Source: an uncultured Christensenella sp. (GTDB taxonomy: Bacteria > Bacillota > Clostridia > Christensenellales > Christensenellaceae). Taken from it: a stretch of DNA of 64,000 bases. Both the position numbers and the translations under genes were made by a program. Positions 3,644 to 57,272 of this stretch are shown here, one piece after another (positions within the stretch are counted from its first letter, which is position 1; each line of letters starts with the position of its first letter). The notes under the pieces were generated by a model. It was not told where the DNA came from, did no database searches, and worked only from the letters and a program-made list of their open reading frames with translations. The stretch covers positions 1,605 to 65,604 of the forward strand of contig CAZQBV010000003.1 in NCBI GenBank assembly GCA_964592125.1, written 5' to 3'.

Positions 3644-3965
3644 CTATAACACTATACAAGTATAGATATTTATTATATCACAGACGTTGAGTATAACAAT
3701 GAAAAACATGTAAATTATGAGCTTTTATAAAAAGCGGCTACAAAAAAATATGTATTTTAAAGCAAAAACAAGAGAAATAATTTCAATAAAAAAAGATGTA
3801 GAAAAATAGGAAGAAGAAGTCTTTTGAAACATAATATAGGAAAGTCTTTTCTTTTTGAAAATAATACTCTATAATATAAATTAAGTAGAATAAATAAACA
3901 ATGGAAAAAGCTTTGATGTAGGTGTATTTAGTTTTTAGTATTATATTAAAAGGATGGTAAGCAAG

Positions 3966-5183
3966 ATGCAGACGTATATTGTGAAACAACCAGTTCATGA
4001 CAAAGATAATAACCTTTTTGCATATGAAATTCTTTACCGTGAGAACCCAGATGATACCCAGGTGGAATCGGATGATGCAATTGCGGCTAATGCCATAGAA
4101 AATCTTTTGCCGCGTTTGTCTGACCAAGATTTTTTTGATGGGAAAGATGTGTTGCTTACTTTTACGGAGCCTTTGCTGCAAAAGGATATTCCCAGCATAT
4201 TTGATGCCAACACATTAATACTGGAACTGGAGTATGAAGTTCTGTTGAATTCCGATGCACTGAACTTGATTCGAAAGTATAAAGAGAAGGGCTACAGAAT
4301 TTCGCTGATGGAGTTTCAGTTTAACCCACGCTACATTACAATGCTGGATGAAGTGGATTTTATTAAGCTGAACATGAAAATACCGTCTACTTCTACAGAA
4401 TCCATTGCGGCAATTGCGCGGGAATTGAATATAAAAACAATTGGGTTTAATGTGGATGACAAACGTACCTTTGACTATGCAAAAAAACTGGAAGTGGATT
4501 ATTTGCAGGGTCAATACATTGGCACAATGATACCTGAGAAGGTGAACAACCTAGAGCATTTGCAAAGTAACTTCTTCCAGCTGATGGCTGCGGTAACGGA
4601 GCGTGAACCAGATTTGGACAAAATAGAAGAACTGGTGGCTCGTGACGTAACACTAACTTATGCGCTGTTGAAACTGGTGAACTCTGCCTTCTTTGGATTT
4701 AGAAACAAGATACAGTCGGTACACCAAGCCATGGTGGTGTTGGGTGTGAACCAGCTGCGCCAGTGGATTTACCTGCTGAGCTTCCGCAGGGATGAAAATG
4801 CACCGGAAGAATTTATTAAGCTTTCGTTTATGCGCGGACAATTTTGTGCGGAGTTGTTTGATTATGCGAAGGATATGCCGATTGTAAAATCCGAAGCGTA
4901 TTTGTTGGGTATGTTCTCTACAATGGACTATATATTGAATGTACCAATGGAAGAAGCGCTGCAGCACCTTGCCATATCGGATGATATTAAAGTGGCATTG
5001 CTAAAACAAGAGGGACGTTGCGGCGTGCTATATAAAATGGTGCTGGCCTATGAGCGTGGCGATTGGCCTGTGATAAACGAATGTGCGGAAGAGCTGGAAA
5101 TGCCCACAGCCATTATTACCGAAAAATATTTTGAGTGCTTGGAAATGGTAAATAATATTTGGGATGGATTGATGACGCTGTAA
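3966..5183 (+). CDS. EAL-like plus HDOD domain signalling protein (COG3434-type); EAL catalytic residues look degenerate
   Basis: N-terminal YEILYR (EAL position), DFIKLN and YLQGQYIG. The HDOD signature is LLKLVNSAFFGF...AMVVLGVNQLRQW. The ATG at 3966 sits about 11 nt after AAAGGA; an alternative ATG lies at 3954. Confidence 0.7.
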   Translation: MQTYIVKQPVHDKDNNLFAYEILYRENPDDTQVESDDAIAANAIENLLPRLSDQDFFDGKDVLLTFTEPLLQKDIPSIFDANTLILELEYEVLLNSDALNLIRKYKEKGYRISLMEFQFNPRYITMLDEVDFIKLNMKIPSTSTESIAAIARELNIKTIGFNVDDKRTFDYAKKLEVDYLQGQYIGTMIPEKVNNLEHLQSNFFQLMAAVTEREPDLDKIEELVARDVTLTYALLKLVNSAFFGFRNKIQSVHQAMVVLGVNQLRQWIYLLSFRRDENAPEEFIKLSFMRGQFCAELFDYAKDMPIVKSEAYLLGMFSTMDYILNVPMEEALQHLAISDDIKVALLKQEGRCGVLYKMVLAYERGDWPVINECAEELEMPTAIITEKYFECLEMVNNIWDGLMTL

Positions 5184-5256: not shown

Positions 5257-6093
5257 ATGGGGGAAGAAAAGATTCCTATTATTAATATAATGGAGGAAAT
5301 TGTTGACTTAAAAGTTGATAAGCTGGTGGATATTAAAGATATGTGCAAATGCCAGCACTGCCGTGCCGATGCCAAAGCTCTGGCGTTGAACAAGCTTCCG
5401 CCCAGATATGTAGCCTCGGTAAGCGGGGGCGTTTTTTCCCAAATGCAGGCAACAACAACACAAATGCAGGCAGAGCTGATGGTGGCGGTGGTGGAAGCGG
5501 TGGAGATGGTTGCCAAACGGCCAAGCCATGCTGTGGAAAAAAAGGAAGAAAAGAAAAAGGAACGGCGTCTATCTACACGAAGCGCCAGCGTGGAGAAAAC
5601 AGTACAGATGGAAAACCTCCCGCAGGATGACGGTGTGGAGGAAGTTGGCAATGCCCAAGAAAACGAGACTATAGGCCAGAAACAGGCTGCGACAGTCAAC
5701 AAAATATCGGCTGAAGACATTGGCGGTGAAACGAAACCGAACCTAGGGGGAAAGATTTCCCCGGAGGATATAGGAGGAACTGCCCTAACGCAAGTACCTA
5801 CAGCAAAAGCGGCACAGGAATCTACTGTAACAACTGCCAGTGAAGCGCCAGCAACGCAAAGCCAAGAGGATAAAATGGCTGCGGCATTGGCTGCGGCAAA
5901 AGCCAAGGCTGCGCAGGAAGCCGCCGCGTCAATTGCAAGTGAAACCCCAATAGCGCAAAGCCAAGAGGACAAAATGGCTGCGGCGCTGGCTGCGGCAAAA
6001 GCGAAGGCGGTACAGGAAGCTGCCGAGGAAGATGAGCTGATAGATGTGGGCGGGTATGGCGCATTTGATGGTACGGAATTGCCAGAACTGTGA
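5257..6093 (+). CDS. ComFB-like domain protein with a long charged, Ala-rich C-terminal extension
   Basis: N-terminal IMEEIVDLKVDKL...CKCQHCRADAKALALNKLPPRYV matches my memory of the ComFB (late competence development) signature. The C-terminal 190 aa is low complexity with an internal duplication. Confidence 0.65.
   Translation: MGEEKIPIINIMEEIVDLKVDKLVDIKDMCKCQHCRADAKALALNKLPPRYVASVSGGVFSQMQATTTQMQAELMVAVVEAVEMVAKRPSHAVEKKEEKKKERRLSTRSASVEKTVQMENLPQDDGVEEVGNAQENETIGQKQAATVNKISAEDIGGETKPNLGGKISPEDIGGTALTQVPTAKAAQESTVTTASEAPATQSQEDKMAAALAAAKAKAAQEAAASIASETPIAQSQEDKMAAALAAAKAKAVQEAAEEDELIDVGGYGAFDGTELPEL
5836..6033 (+). repeat. 99-bp direct duplication, in frame, inside the ComFB-like gene
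   Basis: ASEAPATQSQEDKMAAALAAAKAKAAQEAAASI followed by ASETPIAQSQEDKMAAALAAAKAKAVQEAAEE. The copies start at 5836 and 5935. Confidence 0.85.
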
Positions 6094-7069: not shown

Positions 7070-7097
7070 CTAAAGTATTTGAAAGCACTGACGATAT
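7070..7097 (+). promoter_or_regulatory. candidate sigma-28 (SigD/FliA) promoter for the flagellin gene
   Basis: TAAA-N16-GACGATAT versus the B. subtilis SigD consensus TAAA-N15-GCCGATAT. Lies about 150 nt upstream of the flagellin ATG. Confidence 0.6.
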
Positions 7098-15775: not shown

Positions 15776-16849
15776 ATGGCCGATGATGGCGGCACCGGTG
15801 AACGCACTGAACAAGCGACTCCCAAAAAGAAAGAGGATGCTCGGGAGCGCGGTCAGGTATTAAAAAGCAATGAACTTGTGATGACGGGTTGCCTGCTCAT
15901 CATGTTTGTGGCACTTAGGGCACTGATGCCTATGATTGCTGAAAATTTAATGAATTTTACAAAAACGTACCTATCCGGACAAAAGATGACCGCAGAGGTA
16001 CTGACCACACAAAGGATGATGGTGGTTGGCAACGATATGATATTGGGATTTCTTAATATTATGTTGCCCATATTGGTGGTGGCGGTATTGGCGGCAATTC
16101 TGGTAAATGTGGTGCAGGTGGGCTTTTTATTCAGCACCAAGGCAATGCAGCCCAAAATGGAACGGTTAAATGTACTGGAAGGCTTCAAACGACTGTTTTC
16201 CACTCGTGCGCTGTTTGAACTTGCAAAAGCGGTTTTAAAAGTGGTGGTAATTGGATATATTATATACAGTCAGGTATCTTCTAACTTGGTTGTATTCCCC
16301 GCAATGATGCGAGACAATTATGTGGGGGCAATTCAAAAAATAGCGGAAATGGTTTTTGATGCGGCACTGCAAATATGTATGGTGCTGGCAATTATAGCTG
16401 CGGTGGACTATATGTACCAACGTTGGCGGTATGAAAAAGATTTGCGTATGAGCAAGTACGAAATAAAGATGGAGATGAAAAGCCAAGAGGGTGACCCGCA
16501 AATAAAGGGTAAGATAAAGCAAAAGCAACGTGAAATGTCTATGATGCGTATGATGCAGGGCGTTCCGGATGCGGATGTGGTAATTACCAACCCAACGCAT
16601 TATGCGGTTGCGCTGAAATACGATGAGAGCAAAGGTGATGCACCCATGGTGATTGCGAAGGGCAAAGAACGGGTTGCACAAAAAATAAAGGAAGTTGCCA
16701 AAGAAAATAACGTGGAAATTGTGGAAGACAGAGAGCTGGCTCGTGGAATTTATGCTTACTGTAATATAGGAGATTTTATACCTGTAGAGATGTATCAAGC
16801 GGTAGCAGAAATTCTTGCTCAAATCTTTCGTGCAAAAAATAAGAGATAA
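15776..16849 (+). CDS. flhB: flagellar export switch protein FlhB
   Basis: N-terminal GERTEQATPKKKEDARERGQVLKS. NPTH autocleavage motif at nt 16589-16600. Confidence 0.95.
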   Translation: MADDGGTGERTEQATPKKKEDARERGQVLKSNELVMTGCLLIMFVALRALMPMIAENLMNFTKTYLSGQKMTAEVLTTQRMMVVGNDMILGFLNIMLPILVVAVLAAILVNVVQVGFLFSTKAMQPKMERLNVLEGFKRLFSTRALFELAKAVLKVVVIGYIIYSQVSSNLVVFPAMMRDNYVGAIQKIAEMVFDAALQICMVLAIIAAVDYMYQRWRYEKDLRMSKYEIKMEMKSQEGDPQIKGKIKQKQREMSMMRMMQGVPDADVVITNPTHYAVALKYDESKGDAPMVIAKGKERVAQKIKEVAKENNVEIVEDRELARGIYAYCNIGDFIPVEMYQAVAEILAQIFRAKNKR

Positions 16850-43711: not shown

Positions 43712-45142
43712 GTGGTAGTTACAAAAAATATTTTGGAGATTGCGCCCGCGCAGCCAGTAAAGCAAAGAGACCCTGCCAGAAGCAATGGTGACTTTATGAA
43801 GCAGCTGGATCAAGCAGCAAGATATAGAGCTGATAGCAAGCAGGATAGGCCAGAGCGAGCAAATGCTATCCAAGAGAAGAGCGATGACAACAAGTGTTGT
43901 GAAAAAAAGGTTGCTGATTCCCCAAAAGAGGAAGCAAAAAGCGAAACACCTGTAGCAGAAGAGTTGCAAAAAACGCCTGAGACAGAAATGGTAGAAGAGC
44001 CTTTGGAAGAGAAAAAAGACCAACCCGAGGTATTTGCTGCAATTCCAATGATTATGGCAAATGAAATTGCAGACGTTTTTGTTGTGGAACAACAGTCTGC
44101 TGTGATTGATGTAGCCACTGGTATCAGCATTGAGCCTATTAACGAACTGAACTTAGAGGTAAATATGCCCGTGGTGGATGCCCAGCAGCCAGTGAAAACA
44201 GAGGTAGCGTCATTTGTTGAACTGATGCATGAAAATGCACAGACGGTACTTCAGAATGAAAATGGACAGATTGCATCGGCTGCCAAGGAAGTATTGGAAC
44301 AACCTGTAAACATATTGACAGATGCAGATACAATGGATACGGAACCGGACGTGCAACAGCAAAAGGCCGGAACGAAGACAGTGGCGGTGGAGCAAGCGGC
44401 ACAGCCGGAAACAATGCAGTTTGTAAAACAGGTTGTGCAGGAAATGGACGCTAAGTTAAAACAAGAAGTAGACACTACACCCAAAGCAATGCCAAGCACA
44501 ACAAATGTTGAACTGGAAACTGCTGTGGAAAAACCTGCTATGATGCAGGGAAATGACGATTCCGACAATGCGGCGACCAAGCAAAAGGAGATACCTGTAT
44601 TGCAGCACCCCCTAACAGCGCCAATTGCGCAAGATGGCAAGGTGGATTTTAAAATGAGTATGCAGGAACTTCAGCCGCAGGAACAGCAGCTATTGAAACA
44701 AAATGTGCAGACGCAAATTATTGACCAAGTAAGAAGCCTGGTAACGCAGGAGAAGACAGAGTTTTACCTGCAACTGAAGCCGGAACACTTGGGTGGACTT
44801 TCCATTATGCTGGCAGCGGGCGAAAAAGGCCTTGTGGCCAAATTGATGACAGCAAGCAAGGATGTTCACATGATGTTGCAAAATGATATGACACAAATTC
44901 AGGAAAGCTTGAAAGAGCGTGGTATCACAATTGTTCAAATGGAAGTGGTTTACGATCAAATGGCCAGTACAACTGGCAAACAAAATACAAATGATGGACA
45001 GGGCTGGGAAGCAAATGGTTCCCCCGGTAGTCAAGGAAGAGTACTGGAAGATATAATCGAGGGAGGATCCCTCACATATGACGAACTGTCTAATTATGAT
45101 ATACTTGCAGAGCAAGGAGGTTCTGTGGAATTTAGTGCATAG
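43712..45142 (+). CDS. fliK: flagellar hook-length control protein FliK
   Basis: Long Q/E/P-rich ruler region followed by C-terminal EFYLQLKPEHLGGLSIMLAAGEKGLVAKLMTASKDV (Flg_hook-type). GTG start after GAGAGGAGGTG. Confidence 0.85.
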   Translation: MVVTKNILEIAPAQPVKQRDPARSNGDFMKQLDQAARYRADSKQDRPERANAIQEKSDDNKCCEKKVADSPKEEAKSETPVAEELQKTPETEMVEEPLEEKKDQPEVFAAIPMIMANEIADVFVVEQQSAVIDVATGISIEPINELNLEVNMPVVDAQQPVKTEVASFVELMHENAQTVLQNENGQIASAAKEVLEQPVNILTDADTMDTEPDVQQQKAGTKTVAVEQAAQPETMQFVKQVVQEMDAKLKQEVDTTPKAMPSTTNVELETAVEKPAMMQGNDDSDNAATKQKEIPVLQHPLTAPIAQDGKVDFKMSMQELQPQEQQLLKQNVQTQIIDQVRSLVTQEKTEFYLQLKPEHLGGLSIMLAAGEKGLVAKLMTASKDVHMMLQNDMTQIQESLKERGITIVQMEVVYDQMASTTGKQNTNDGQGWEANGSPGSQGRVLEDIIEGGSLTYDELSNYDILAEQGGSVEFSA

Positions 45143-52557: not shown

Positions 52558-53613
52558 ATGTTGGCCACTCCCAAAAGGATAAGAGTTCTTATTGTAGATG
52601 ATTCGGTTTTTTTTAGAACCATTTTAACCAACTTATTGCTAAAGTTTCCACAGATACAAGTAGTGGGGTTGGCGGCTGATGCTGATGAGGCGCAGGCAAA
52701 AGTGGTAGAGCTAAAGCCTGATGTGATTACTTTAGATATCAATATGCCCAAAATGAACGGGGTTGATTTTTTAAAGACGCAAATTCCACGTAAATGGATT
52801 CCTGTTGTTGTAATTAGCACTCGGAATGATATTGTTTTTGAGGCAATGGATGCGGGGGCTGTAGATTTTGTGGAAAAGCCAAGTATTACGCCTAGGCAAA
52901 GTTTGGATGGTTTTGCAAGCGAAATTGCAGATAAAATTACGGTGGCTGCCAATGCAACTCCTGCAAAAAGCAAAATACGCTCGGCTCCGATTGTTGTACC
53001 GCCAGAAAAGGGTGTAGCTTCTGCGCGCTTAGGAGGTGCGGCTACCAAAGGTCTTATTGCGTTGGGGGCATCAACGGGTGGTACAGAAGCAACAAGTTTT
53101 ATTTTAAAACAATTGCCAAGCGATATTCCGGGCATGGTAATTGTGCAGCACATGCCGCCGATTTTTACAAAGATGTATGCGGAACGGTTGAATAGGGAAA
53201 CCAAGCTAACTGTAAAAGAAGCTGAAGAGCGAGACGTTATTTTGGCGGGGCATGCGTATGTGGCTCCCGGAGATGCACATATTGAAGTAATTAAAGAAGG
53301 TACAGAGCTTTACATACACTGTAACAAAAAGGAAAAAGTGAACGGGCATCGCCCTTCTGTAGATGTGATGTTTGACTCTGTGGCAAAATTTGCCGATAAA
53401 AGCACAACCGCAATTATATTAACAGGAATGGGTCAGGATGGTGCAAAGGGAATGGTGCGCCTTCGCAAACGTGGCGCATTTACCATTGGGCAGGACGAAG
53501 CCTCCAGTGTGGTATATGGCATGCCTATGGTGGCATATCAACTAGGTGGTGTTGAAAAACAGGCACCTTTGGATATGATTGCTCAAGTGTTAATGGAACA
53601 TTTAAAAAGGTAG
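52558..53613 (+). CDS. cheB: chemotaxis methylesterase/deamidase CheB
   Basis: REC is VLIVDDS...DINMPKMNG. The esterase domain has GASTGG, QHMPP and GMGQDG. Confidence 0.93.
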   Translation: MLATPKRIRVLIVDDSVFFRTILTNLLLKFPQIQVVGLAADADEAQAKVVELKPDVITLDINMPKMNGVDFLKTQIPRKWIPVVVISTRNDIVFEAMDAGAVDFVEKPSITPRQSLDGFASEIADKITVAANATPAKSKIRSAPIVVPPEKGVASARLGGAATKGLIALGASTGGTEATSFILKQLPSDIPGMVIVQHMPPIFTKMYAERLNRETKLTVKEAEERDVILAGHAYVAPGDAHIEVIKEGTELYIHCNKKEKVNGHRPSVDVMFDSVAKFADKSTTAIILTGMGQDGAKGMVRLRKRGAFTIGQDEASSVVYGMPMVAYQLGGVEKQAPLDMIAQVLMEHLKR

Positions 53614-53895
53614 TTTATCTTTGAACGAGCTATCTTGCTGACTGATATAAATTAATATTTGCGCCACGGCTTCATAAAGTTTTGGTGGAATAATATCTCC
53701 AACGGATAGCTGCATAAGCACGTCGGAGAGTTTTTTATCTTCAACAATAGGCACGTCATGTTTTTGGGCGCTTTCAATAATTTTTTCGGCAACATGCCCC
53801 ATACCAAGTGCAGCAATGATAGGCGCATCGTCCTTATCGGGATCATAGCGCAAAGCCGCCGCTTTTGTTTTTTTGTCGGAATTTTTATTAGCCAT
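53602..53895 (-). CDS. stand-alone FlhB C-terminal subdomain-like protein (YlqH-like)
   Basis: 97 aa. It aligns by eye to the post-NPTH part of the FlhB encoded in this window (ALRYDPDKDDAP..., PIVEDKKL, GDIIPPKLYEAVAQIL versus ALKYDESKGDAP..., EIVEDREL, GDFIPVEMYQAVAEIL). It has no NPTH motif and no TM region. Confidence 0.75.
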   Translation of the reverse strand: MANKNSDKKTKAAALRYDPDKDDAPIIAALGMGHVAEKIIESAQKHDVPIVEDKKLSDVLMQLSVGDIIPPKLYEAVAQILIYISQQDSSFKDKLPF

Positions 53896-54078
53896 AGTAT
53901 GATTATACTAATTTCAGTTAGAAAAGCAATGAAAATACAATGATACAGTGCCTAAAATAATTTGTTCAAGCAATGAAAAGTAGAAAATAAGGCTTTTATC
54001 TAAACAAATCAGGCATATGTACGATATAAAATATATAGTTTGCCTTGGGAAGCAAGTGTTTTGAGATGGAGGATAGTA

Positions 54079-56016
54079 ATGCAAATTACACCTATGAATA
54101 GTAAACCGATTGGTGCAGATATTGTAAATTGGGGCGAAGGTGGGAACTCGCCTTTTCATGCTGTGCGTGAAGGTCAAATCATAAAGGCGGAAGTTGTTGC
54201 TGCGGAAGGAAGTTCGCTTACAATAAAACTAAGTGACGGAAGTACTGTAAAGGCAGATTTTCCGGGCGCACAGGTGATGTTGCCTGGAGATCAACTGGAG
54301 CTGATGATGATGTCTAAAGCGGATGGCAACATTCACCTAAGGCTAACCACAATAAATGGCCAGCAAGTGCAAATGGGCACTGGAGACCTGCAGGTTCGCC
54401 TTATGGACATGGGTGTACAGCCTTCTGAAATAAACACAAAGGCGGCTCAATTTTTAGTCGATAGAAATGTGCAGCCCACACCGGAACGTGTTGCATTACT
54501 CGTAAAAATAGCAATGCAGTATCCAGAACTGCCAGCTTCTGTGGCCTTGTTTGTTGCAGAAAACAACATACCGGTTACTCAGCAAAATATAAATGCATTG
54601 ATGTTGTGGCTGCAAAGTGGGCAAACCCTCGGCAATGAAGCACAACAACTTATTAATGATGTGAATCTTTTCCTAACGGAGCAACTTGGTAAAACAACCC
54701 AGCCGGAATTGGTACCTTCAATCGCAGGGCAAACAGAGCAGAATGCTGAGCCATTGCAAAACAAAGCAATGCACACAAATGTAGATCATTCGGCAGCGAT
54801 GCCTGGGCAGGTGCCAGCGAATGATGCAGCCCAGACGGGTTTGGATGCGCGTGCAAAATTGCTTGCGTTGATTGCGCAGCTAAACAATCCCGCCCCTTCC
54901 GCCGAAACGGCGCAACCAGCATTTATGGCAGAAATTACACAGGGACAATCTGGAGTTGTAGCAGAACAGATACTCACAAATTCTCAGCAGGCAGTATTTC
55001 AAAATGCTTTTATGTCTATTGTAAGCCATAGCCCGGTAGAGCGGGCAATTCACCAATTGCCACAAAATGCCGTTTTGGATTTTGCCTCCACATTGGCAAA
55101 CACGAATGAGACACAAGTACAACAAGCCATAGAAGGGTTTCTTTCGAAGTTTCCGCTAACAGCAGAGCAGAAAGCCGAAGTGGCACAAACTTTGCAAATT
55201 GCGTATCAAACTGGACGTGTGGCGGCCTCCACAGTGCTGGCTGATTCGGCTGTAGACGGACAGGCGCAAATGGCGCAACAACCAACTTCCAATGCGCAGG
55301 AAACGATGGCACAGCAAAATACTATGTTGCAGGGCAGTGCCGCAAAACAGAATGGCACAGCAATAAACCAACCGCAAGTGTTTGGGGACGCAGCCATACA
55401 GGAAATGCAGCAGCTGTTGCAAGTATTGGATAAGTTGACTGTTGGTATCAGGCACAATGCGCGAATAGATGCCGAAAACTTGCAAAATGCTGTGAAAAGC
55501 CAGCAACAAATTGCGGACAGTGTGCAGAGCGGCCTTTCTAGGGTGATGGGGGATTCCAGCAACGTAACACAGCGTGCTGCGGATATTTCCTCTCGGATAC
55601 AACTGGGAAACAACATAGAAAATTTTTACTATTGCCAGATACCCATAGAAATGAGTCAAAATAAGAGCACGGCAGAGCTATACGTATTTGAACGCAAGCA
55701 AAAGGGCAATGCAGAAGAGCGCACCAATACAACCATATTGATTGCATTGGAAACGCAGAATATGGGCAGGGTGGAAACGGTAATGCGTTCTGAACGGGAT
55801 AGTTTGGGAATAGAATTTCGGGTACAGAGCCCAGTTATTGTAAACTATTTGCAAAAAACAACTGCAGAGCTTGCGCAGTCGCTTGCAGGTGATGATTTTG
55901 CTGTCAAGGAAATTCGCGTGGTACAGATGAATAAGCCTGTTACCCCGCTAAATGTGGATCAGATGCTGGGAGAAAAAGAATATTTTCAGTTGCAAACTGT
56001 GGATATAAGTATATAA
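54079..56016 (+). CDS. 645-aa hypothetical protein with a Q/A-rich middle and a FliK-C-terminal-like domain
   Basis: ATG at 54079 after GATGGAGGA. C-terminal ILIALETQNMGRVETVMRSERDSLGIEFRVQSPVIVNYLQKTTAELAQSLAGDDFAVKEIRV follows the LxLxPExLGxLxI pattern of the FliK switch domain. Confidence 0.55.
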   Translation: MQITPMNSKPIGADIVNWGEGGNSPFHAVREGQIIKAEVVAAEGSSLTIKLSDGSTVKADFPGAQVMLPGDQLELMMMSKADGNIHLRLTTINGQQVQMGTGDLQVRLMDMGVQPSEINTKAAQFLVDRNVQPTPERVALLVKIAMQYPELPASVALFVAENNIPVTQQNINALMLWLQSGQTLGNEAQQLINDVNLFLTEQLGKTTQPELVPSIAGQTEQNAEPLQNKAMHTNVDHSAAMPGQVPANDAAQTGLDARAKLLALIAQLNNPAPSAETAQPAFMAEITQGQSGVVAEQILTNSQQAVFQNAFMSIVSHSPVERAIHQLPQNAVLDFASTLANTNETQVQQAIEGFLSKFPLTAEQKAEVAQTLQIAYQTGRVAASTVLADSAVDGQAQMAQQPTSNAQETMAQQNTMLQGSAAKQNGTAINQPQVFGDAAIQEMQQLLQVLDKLTVGIRHNARIDAENLQNAVKSQQQIADSVQSGLSRVMGDSSNVTQRAADISSRIQLGNNIENFYYCQIPIEMSQNKSTAELYVFERKQKGNAEERTNTTILIALETQNMGRVETVMRSERDSLGIEFRVQSPVIVNYLQKTTAELAQSLAGDDFAVKEIRVVQMNKPVTPLNVDQMLGEKEYFQLQTVDISI

Positions 56017-56172: not shown

Positions 56173-56207
56173 ATTTTATATGTATGCACAGGAGGGATAT
56201 TTTAACT

Positions 56208-57272
56208 ATGCCAATTACAGATTCGGTTAGTAATGTTTACATGAACAACATGTATGTAACTGGTGGCAATGCCAACAATAATTATGCAAGTGGTGTTTCG
56301 CAAACTCCATCTTTGACTAATCTAGGCAATGCTCTCCCGACTGCAAATAACAGTAACAATCTTACAAACTCATTTTCGCAAATGTTAAGCGGTATGATGG
56401 CTGGCAATACAGCCAATATGGCTTCGGGCATTGGCGATTTTTCTGGTTTGGGAGGAAGTGGCGATACCAGCTCTGCTTTAAGCGGACTAATGGGCATGGG
56501 CAGCGGTAGCAGTATGGATAGTATGGGTGGATCTTCCGAATCCAACATAATGATGATGATGGTACTGTTGCTTTTGGCACAGCAGAACAACAATGGGCAA
56601 AACAACAACCTATTAAATAGCTTGAATGGAAACAATGCTGCTACAATGGGCTACAACAATGCCAATGCATCTGCGCAGACCTATGCCAATATGGCAAGCC
56701 AGGGAATCCCTACAAATTCAGCTTCGGTTGCCAATGCGGCAATTACTAGCAACGTTGGGCAGCGCAGTGCAGATCTTTATCGTGCAGTTATTAACCAGTT
56801 TAATGTGGAATCAAATCAGCGTTATGCTGTGAATAAGCAGGGGATAGGTGATACCTACTGCAATATCTTCGCATGGGACGTAACGCGAGCAATGGGTGCG
56901 GAAGTGCCGCACTATATAGATAGCGCAACGGGTGCACCGGTTTCTTCTGGCGCAGGCGGTGCCAAGGAGCTGAATGCAAACCAAGTGAACGATTGGCTCA
57001 ATAGCACTGGGCGAGCCTTTGGCTGGACAAAAGTTTCCGCAGAAGAGGCACAGTACTACGCCAATATGGGAATGCCAGCCATTACTTCGTGGAAAAATTC
57101 TGCTGGGCATGGGCATTTGCAGGTAGTAAGCCCATCGGTGGATGGACAGTACGACCCCTCCAGAGGGGTGGCAATTGCTCAGGCAGGTCGTCAGGTGAAA
57201 AACTACGACTATATCACATCGGTATATGGCGCAAGCACCTTGCCACATGTGGAGTATTTTGTGCATGTATAA
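56208..57272 (+). CDS. hypothetical protein with an N/G/S/M-rich low-complexity N-terminal half and a C-terminal Cys/His papain-like (CHAP/NlpC-P60-like) domain
   Basis: ATG at 56208 downstream of GGAGGG. The C-terminal half contains GDTYCNIFAWDVTRAMG and NSAGHGHLQVVSP. No classical signal peptide. Confidence 0.5.
   Translation: MPITDSVSNVYMNNMYVTGGNANNNYASGVSQTPSLTNLGNALPTANNSNNLTNSFSQMLSGMMAGNTANMASGIGDFSGLGGSGDTSSALSGLMGMGSGSSMDSMGGSSESNIMMMMVLLLLAQQNNNGQNNNLLNSLNGNNAATMGYNNANASAQTYANMASQGIPTNSASVANAAITSNVGQRSADLYRAVINQFNVESNQRYAVNKQGIGDTYCNIFAWDVTRAMGAEVPHYIDSATGAPVSSGAGGAKELNANQVNDWLNSTGRAFGWTKVSAEEAQYYANMGMPAITSWKNSAGHGHLQVVSPSVDGQYDPSRGVAIAQAGRQVKNYDYITSVYGASTLPHVEYFVHV

Follow-up and report, generated by a model that had tools for sequence, protein, structure and literature searches.

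The 64,000-nucleotide (nt) stretch of DNA analysed here (the window: uncultured Christensenella sp., assembly GCA_964592125.1, contig CAZQBV010000003.1, positions 1,605-65,604) carries in its flagellar cluster two adjacent, divergently transcribed genes. The first, flhX (ylqH-type; 53602..53895, minus strand), encodes a 97-amino-acid (aa) soluble homologue of FlhB-CC, the part of FlhB that follows its autocleavage site; the second, fliK2 (ylqG-type; 54079..56016, plus strand), encodes a 645-aa protein made up of an N-terminal beta-barrel, a helical domain, Q/A-rich spacers and a C-terminal T3S4 (type III secretion substrate-specificity-switch) domain. At this locus a widespread accessory module of the flagellum, consisting of two genes, appears in its Christensenellales-type form, and we are nearly certain that it is the FlhX/YlqH plus FliK2/YlqG module. 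The gene pair is real but already named, and it does not represent a novel type of system, since both the FlhX family and the fliK2-flhX pairing are in the literature; the divergent layout is the only feature specific to the Christensenellales-like lineage. As to function, we tentatively propose that FlhX docks in trans as an FlhB-CC on FlhB-CN, with FliK2 as its dedicated T3S4 partner, a mechanism that we hold to be rather more probably wrong than right; for identity and mechanism taken as one statement, we regard the chances as evenly balanced.

The product of the small gene resembles the last part of FlhB and nothing before it. Against Pfam Bac_export_2 it gives E 1.2e-20 and passes the gathering score (74.5 vs 24.4), aligning only with profile positions 262-335 of 335, so that the search suggested by an earlier reading of the DNA made without databases (the sequence-only reading) returned the family that it had named. 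The best NCBIfam model is TIGR00789 (flhB_rel, 'FlhB-like flagellar biosynthesis protein'), which is matched over model positions 2-82 of 84 with 100.8 bits, under the curated cut-off of 117.35. The window also encodes a canonical FlhB (15776..16849, plus strand) with an intact NPTH at residues 269-272 (Bac_export_2 E 2e-127; TIGR00328 400 bits, over the cut-off), and the likeness to its post-NPTH part that had been estimated by eye at about 40% over some 75 residues was measured by BLASTP as 46% identity over 71 residues (FlhB 277-347), the alignment starting directly past NPTH(269-272)-Y. FlhX also aligns, from chain residue 5 onwards, to the post-cleavage chains of the Aquifex and Salmonella FlhB-C structures (3b1s_B, E 8e-16, and 3b0z_B); given these two starting points, FlhX begins where cleaved FlhB-CC begins.

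As the earlier reading had stated, FlhX has no NPTH, no FlhB-CN part and no transmembrane (TM) segment: the basic residues KKTK (8-11) occupy the place of PTHY, and the highest Kyte-Doolittle value over 19 residues is 0.94. The protein is slightly acidic (isoelectric point, pI, 5.6). All of its relatives stand alone, with lengths of about 53-124 aa, the closest being encoded in a metagenome-assembled genome (MAG) of an uncultured Christensenella sp. (78% identity), and NP[TES]H occurs in none of 130 distinct FlhX sequences. In Salmonella FlhB-CC, a hydrophobic pocket formed by A286, P287, A341 and L344 docks early substrates (PMC9307174). By the 3b0z_B alignment, these residues correspond to A24, P25, A78 and L81 of FlhX, and among the 130 distinct sequences the first position is A 113 times, the second P 128 times, the third A every time and the fourth L 111 times (with F in 15 more); the AxALxY strand, which follows the cleavage site in FlhB, is conserved in at least 97%. 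Judged by its residues, FlhX has retained the FlhB pocket at which early substrates dock and looks like a working FlhB-CC, short only of the partner strand that comes from FlhB-CN. The label 'FlhB-CC mimic' is therefore apt in that the protein is a stand-alone equivalent of FlhB-CC, but it undersells a protein in which the pocket is retained. Compared with the orthologue in Christensenella MAG locus L008, the rate of nonsynonymous change (dN) is 0.15, with the synonymous rate (dS) saturated.

The start codon of fliK2 (ATG at 54079) is preceded by GGAGG at 54068-54072, and the gap between the two divergent genes is exactly the 183 bp reported earlier. Both ends of the 645-aa protein proved to be as the sequence-only reading had described them. 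The FliK-like C-terminus is matched by Pfam Flg_hook (E 5.5e-9, residues 541-619, over the gathering score), and the T3S4/Flg_hook switch domain, for which sequence profile and fold agree, spans residues 517-616 (55627..55926, plus strand); its best Foldseek match is PscP (5cuk; TM-score 0.60, root-mean-square deviation 1.9 A over 68 columns, probability 1.0). The beta-rich N-terminus appears as a predicted beta domain in an AlphaFold2 (AF2) model built from 51 homologues (mean pLDDT, the predicted local distance difference test, 78.5). In that model a five-stranded barrel (34-92) and a helical bundle (103-206) form an N-terminal module (residues 34-206; 54178..54696, plus strand) with pLDDT mostly 84-97, and long helices (437-511) lead to the alpha/beta domain at 517-616. 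The first 15-30 residues are disordered. The 'long Q/A-rich disordered middle' of the earlier description is Q/A-rich (Q+A = 32%) but only partly disordered, because the region holds a conserved folded part: low-confidence spacers are predicted at 217-253, 270-293 and 392-428, and residues 301-391 form a confidently predicted helical segment that is conserved in the homologue alignment.

The barrel is similar to generic SH3/OB-like barrels. The full-length model had no Foldseek match at E<=0.001, so that domain-level matches alone are usable, and the family profile searched against PDB sequences returned only chance matches to coiled coils and to bL19, with no solved homologue by sequence. The N-terminal module contains blocks that are invariant among homologues, and it is absent from canonical FliK. 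Against the 54%-identical L008 orthologue, dN is 0.22 in the N-terminal module and 0.21 in the C-terminal one, and the spacers change almost freely (dN 0.9-1.4); dS is saturated in most segments, and for this reason dN contrasts alone are used, with dN/dS at 0.08 for residues 437-645. Two candidate motifs in the N-terminal region were examined and set aside. An FxxxPhi gate-recognition motif was sought at F26, which is conserved in close relatives only and has Arg as its +4 residue; a strand resembling FlhB-CN beta-1 ('GADIVN' vs 'DADVVITN') is not kept in relatives and is attributed to chance.

FliK2 belongs to a large family. A word-indexed search found only four relatives, and an exhaustive profile search was needed to recover the family, reaching 1071 cluster representatives with E<=1e-3, 416 of them with E<=1e-10. 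Lengths span about 340-700 aa; most representatives are 500-660 aa long and match in two stretches, N-terminal and C-terminal. Hidden Markov models (HMMs) of the N-domain and the C-domain both match 139 of the 149 representatives listed, and Pfam Flg_hook matches all 51 aligned members. When compared by hhalign with a profile of Bacillaceae YlqG-type proteins (those encoded just upstream of ylqH-type genes), the family aligns end-to-end over 504 columns (99.3%, E 7.7e-21), and this alignment identifies the 645-aa protein as a YlqG homologue. The relation to B. subtilis ylqG-ylqH, which had been a guess, is thus borne out, and the search with FlhX had recovered loci of the form rnhB-(596 aa)-(89 aa)-sucCD as well.

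The likeness of FliK2 to the canonical FliK of the window is confined to the switch domain. The hook-length ruler is encoded at 43712..45142 (plus strand; Flg_hook E 3.7e-11, residues 339-414), in its usual place upstream of flgD/flgE-sized genes. The comparison that had been drawn between the two proteins stands in that both carry Flg_hook, but they have no BLASTP similarity; their profiles match weakly (residues 546-616 vs 344-414, E 0.0034), and the window FliK was not recruited by a jackhmmer search seeded with FliK2. By sequence and gene position FliK2 is not a canonical FliK: it has no likeness to one beyond the switch domain and does not lie in the pre-flgD-flgE position.

Across genomes, the two genes travel together. 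In a scan of one genome per species, FlhX was found at 80 loci, in Bacillota (Lachnospiraceae, Bacillus, Tepidibacter, Alicyclobacillus, Negativicutes and Heliorestis) and beyond (Thermodesulfobacteriota and other 'delta' lineages, Nitrospirota, Nitrospinota, Aquificota, Spirochaetia, Bdellovibrionales and Burkholderiales). A FliK2/YlqG-type gene adjoins about 70 of 79 stand-alone FlhX genes. A co-directional open reading frame (ORF) of at least 150 aa ends no more than 400 bp upstream of 73 of 78 small FlhX ORFs, and 65 of those 73 were homologous to the window FliK2 in a local iterative search; the FliK2 N-domain HMM also matches upstream neighbours of FlhX in several phyla. The reverse relation, checked by contig look-ups of FliK2-type representatives, held in five of five that could be evaluated, each with a Bac_export_2 gene of 91-105 aa directly after the FliK2-type gene; a metagenome scan with a narrow alignment yielded two loci only. 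Co-conservation, which the sequence-only reading had listed among its checks, is accordingly strong in both directions.

The divergent orientation, by contrast, is not a feature of the system. It was found in five Christensenellales-type loci, whereas the usual layout is fliK2 then flhX on the same strand, often with an overlap of about 4 bp by gene calls. The co-directional order is ancestral, and gaps of -3/-4 bp suggest translational coupling. Two contexts recur: lepB-rbgA-rnhB-FliK2-FlhX, which is the ylq region of B. subtilis, and CheD-CheC divergent from FliK2-FlhX-X-FliD, X being the gene that follows the pair. From the second context it follows that the window layout arose by a move or inversion of flhX out of the gap between fliK2 and X to the far side of fliK2. 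That no other gene lies on the minus strand is true of the stretch between about 3.95 kb and the end of the window (about 60 kb): past its start the other long minus-strand ORFs all overlap plus-strand genes, and those that were tested have no family match, in contrast to their plus-strand partners, which do.

Several observations on the distribution of the pair may be added. Many Bacillota FliK2/YlqG-FlhX pairs lie outside the flagellar cluster, and in five loci (L004, L005, L093, L095 and L096) the Bacillota pair sits in a conserved housekeeping block, lepB-rbgA-rnhB-[pair]-sucCD or yraN. In four Lachnospiraceae loci (L013, L019, L020 and L027), only ORFs of 170-220 aa precede FlhX, and these are unrecognised by the FliK2 HMMs. 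Two FlhX genes share a single Nitrospiraceae contig (L061), and both have a separate partner gene upstream.

The literature already contains both genes. A study of the P. putida flagellar cluster names PP_4328 'fliK2' and PP_4329 'flhX' and finds their operon to be FliA-dependent; the same study credits the naming of the FlhX family to Pallen (2005), and the novelty that the sequence-only reading implied for the pair is lost to these two precedents. According to that study, too, the FlhX of H. pylori partly replaces FlhB function (Wand 2006; Smith 2009), and HP1575 of H. pylori, by the title of Wand et al. (2006), permits export with FlhB-CC deleted. An 'flhX-fliK' is mentioned for Nitratiruptor, and FlhX serves as a query in flagellar surveys. 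In the literature searched, B. subtilis ylqG and ylqH receive passing mentions only, with no functional study, and one paper calls ylqG 'rarely reported'.

Set beside these systems, the window genes are alike in kind and differ in arrangement. With the other members of the FlhX family (H. pylori HP1575, B. subtilis YlqH, TIGR00789), the window protein shares a length of about 90-105 aa, homology to FlhB-CC only, some 10 residues ahead of the post-NPTH strand, and the lack of NPTH and of a TM region; it differs in scoring under the TIGR00789 cut-off, and its gene in being divergent from its partner, converging on cheB and perhaps being leaderless. P. putida fliK2-flhX shares the pairing of a Flg_hook protein with FlhX in a flagellar cluster, a likeness by description, as the sequences were not directly compared; its genes are co-directional whereas those of the window are divergent, and its late sigma-28/FliA-type expression is experimental whereas ours is predicted from a motif. 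Clostridia FliK2 proteins have 500-660 aa, against the 340-450 aa typical of Gram-negative loci. The B. subtilis-type YlqG-YlqH pair has full-length homology in the large protein (the 504 columns given above), 53% identity in the small one and a like pairing; it lies among housekeeping genes, co-directional and with a 4-bp overlap, whereas the window pair is divergent and in a flagellar cluster, and Pfam Flg_hook misses the one Bacilli YlqG-type protein tested but detects the window FliK2. With the canonical switch of FliK and FlhB-CC (Salmonella; also YscP/PscP with YscU), the pair shares the T3S4 and FlhB-CC domains and the early-substrate pocket. Here, however, FlhB-CC is a separate polypeptide made without autocleavage, the barrel-plus-helix N-terminus of FliK2 is unrelated to FliK-N and its likeness to FliK-C is marginal, and a genuine FliK and FlhB are also encoded in the window.

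The timing of expression enters the argument through promoter motifs. Upstream of fliK2, at 54001..54027 (plus strand), lies a sigma-28 (SigD/FliA)-like motif, TAAA-N17-CGATAT, which can also be written TAAA-N15-taCGATAT and is a consensus match only to the TAAA-N15-GCCGATAT-type sigma-28 promoter. The pattern TAAA-N16-18-CGATA has eight matches in the window against 1.7 expected, a number that none of 100 shuffles reached; matches at 7071, 25533, 54001 and 57448 precede, respectively, a flagellin gene (7156), an flgF/G-type rod gene (25593), fliK2 (54079) and fliD (57528). The fuller motif TAAA(GT)-N-(A/T)ACGATA, which was seen within about 100 bp upstream of five genes, including one for a 131-aa protein of no known role (24408), probably marks the sigma-28 regulon of this organism. 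The TAAA-N16-18-CGATA pattern also precedes, at a distance of no more than 200 bp, 7 of 65 FliK2-type genes from several phyla; only 0.5% of background 200-bp windows contain it, so the enrichment is about 20-fold. Late expression of fliK2 is predicted from the motif, which fits the FliA-dependence seen in P. putida.

For flhX the candidate promoter is of the sigma-A type (53902..53929, minus strand): TTGCTT (53929-53924), 16 nt, TATAAT (53907-53902), 6 nt and the ATG, with no Shine-Dalgarno sequence in 53896-53929 read directly. Because the TATAAT lies 6 nt from the ATG and no Shine-Dalgarno sequence precedes it, the mRNA may be leaderless and of a housekeeping type. The L008 flhX has a like layout (TTGTTT-16-TATAAT-7-ATG) in spacer DNA that is otherwise diverged, and in L002 and L006 the gene is preceded by an ordinary ribosome-binding site, GGAG. 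Aligned with MAFFT, the divergent intergenic regions proved to be poorly conserved, and promoter elements were compared by eye. At its other end flhX is convergent with cheB, with a 12-bp overlap at 53602-53613, and such an overlap is also seen in L001 (12 bp) and L006 (4 bp); since no terminator-like site was found on the plus strand after cheB before about 55.87 kb, read-through of the fla/che genes would be antisense to flhX.

What the pair might do is best considered against a recent account of the switch itself. In Salmonella, Chevance et al. (2026) report that the apparatus is kept in early mode by the C-terminal domain of cleaved FlhB, that deletion of this domain abolishes early-substrate export, and that the disappearance of the domain at hook completion needs FliK and locks late mode; FlhX is not discussed, and Gram-positive bacteria are said to have no Fluke homologue. 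We propose a mechanism in which every step is drawn from conservation, promoter motifs and the genetics of two organisms. FlhX, as predicted, would lack the beta-strand that FlhB-CN adds to the FlhB-C fold and would keep the pairing strand and the A/P/A/L pocket; because of this combination, it may attach in trans to FlhB-CN at the export gate, an action implied by the 'spare part' finding in H. pylori, with the window FlhB as the presumed docking partner. FlhX would then be a replaceable copy of the lost cis FlhB-CC that re-supplies or holds the early-mode docking site. FliK2, made with the late genes from its putative sigma-28-type promoter, would be the dedicated T3S4 partner of FlhX and could engage it so as to deliver or remove it, and through the pair the cell would be able to control export specificity a second time, after the hook is built.

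A series of points weighs against this mechanism. To our knowledge, FlhX is missing from Salmonella, the source of the ejection model, and from the other enteric models. Once sigma-28 is active, a fresh supply of an early-mode domain would seem to hinder growth of the filament, and the N-terminal module of FliK2 is folded and lacks a conserved FxxxPhi export motif. In the close relatives L002 and L006, fliK2 is not preceded by the sigma-28-like motif, and flhX and fliK2 may not be co-regulated in the window, because the flhX promoter appears to be of the sigma-A type and not sigma-28. No FliK2-FlhX fusion was found among 212 proteins and about 4000 locus ORFs. Lastly, the P. putida study describes the role of FlhX in wild-type cells as 'not well understood'.

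The same features allow other readings, among them the possible decoy, timer or checkpoint role raised by the sequence-only reading. FlhX might remain undocked in the cytoplasm as a decoy or buffer, titrating the FliK switch domain or, through its pocket, early rod and hook subunits, and so delaying or sharpening the specificity switch as Fluke does in enterics, with FliK2 neutralising it once late genes are on. The solubility of FlhX, its retained pocket, the apparently late fliK2 set against a housekeeping-type flhX promoter and the lack of a Fluke homologue in Gram-positive bacteria (Chevance et al.) all speak for this; however, what was seen in H. pylori implies that FlhX docks productively on FlhB and does more than titrate, and the translational coupling suggested for most genomes would have inhibitor and antidote made together, so we consider a decoy unlikely. 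FliK2 could instead be a secreted substrate of the flagellar type III secretion system (T3SS), for example a second ruler that measures another structure, and FlhX its private cytoplasmic partner, bound to the FliK2 T3S4 domain and escorting it or holding it back before export. A small acidic partner encoded beside a larger gene is the pattern of T3SS chaperone-substrate pairs, and FlhX (pI 5.6, from a gene that adjoins the larger one and usually overlaps it) fits it, as do the disordered first 15-30 residues of FliK2, its ruler-like variable spacers and the family lengths of about 340-700 aa. Yet the fold of FlhX is that of FlhB-CC and not of a T3SS chaperone, the barrel and helical N-module of FliK2 is unlike known rulers, and the strict conservation of the substrate pocket would be left unexplained; we think this reading decidedly improbable.

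A plainer view is that the pair only duplicates FlhB-CC and FliK-C and matters when the primary proteins fail. Two things would agree with such back-up paralogues: in the accounts of the H. pylori work cited above, the 'spare part' phenotype is tied to deletion of FlhB-CC, and the literature searched holds no functional study of ylqG or ylqH. Pure redundancy is nevertheless hard to reconcile with the conservation, under purifying selection, of the pair, the pocket and the FliK2 N-module in Bacillota, Thermodesulfobacteriota, Nitrospirota, Aquificota and others, and outside the switch domain FliK2 does not duplicate FliK, so that we give this view little credence. That the 645-aa protein is the true hook-length ruler, the gene at 43712-45142 doing something else, is hardly credible: both proteins carry Flg_hook, but the 43712 gene has the canonical position upstream of flgD/flgE-sized genes and the better Flg_hook score, and the 645-aa protein belongs to the YlqG family, of which the B. 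subtilis member coexists with a separate FliK.

A bolder form of the trans-docking mechanism is a device that resets the switch and throws it again. After FliK has expelled the cis FlhB-CC, soluble FlhX would re-occupy FlhB-CN and re-open early-type export at a completed basal body, and sigma-28-dependent FliK2 would then remove it. We regard this as a long shot; if true, it would permit repair of rod or hook, or export of cargo made late but dependent on the early pocket (the neighbouring Tae1-like cell-wall amidase described below is an example), and, enterics apart, most flagellated phyla would be able to reverse the 'irreversible' switch.

The genes themselves would not surprise a flagellar specialist. 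The specificity switch of T3SSs has long been studied, the 2026 Salmonella study proposes that switching is the FliK-driven loss of the cleaved FlhB C-terminal domain, and many flagellated bacteria encode FlhB-CC as a free protein beside a second T3S4 protein; whether FlhB-CC supplied in trans re-arms, buffers or replaces the switch is now a directly testable question. To this the window adds a pair conserved across phyla in both directions of testing, the FliK2/YlqG family's own conserved N-terminal module, an FlhX that retains the early-substrate pocket and a sigma-28-type signal that recurs upstream of fliK2 in several phyla.

Downstream of fliK2, gene X (56184..57272, plus strand, with a likely start at 56208) encodes a protein with a disordered, low-complexity N-terminal half and a predicted C-terminal peptidoglycan amidase domain of the Tae1/Tse1-like papain fold. 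Searches of Pfam, NCBIfam and PDB sequences matched nothing in it; its homologues number more than 440, and the 120 of them that were listed all lack a functional name. The C-terminal domain is modelled by AF2 with pLDDT above 90 and resembles the type VI peptidoglycan amidase effector Tse1/Tae1 in Foldseek (4fge and 7tvh; TM-score 0.70-0.74, E 4e-6), and C226 and H311 are nearly invariant among homologues. The gene lies after FliK2(-FlhX) and before fliD in five Clostridia loci (L001, L002, L006, L090 and L094). On its modelled fold, protein X is a candidate flagellum-associated cell-wall hydrolase of a Gram-positive lineage, possibly exported. Elsewhere in the flagellar region of the window a ComFB-domain protein is encoded at 5257-6093 (plus strand), and in a related contig (L092) another ComFB-domain gene (3834-4127) stands directly beside FlhX.

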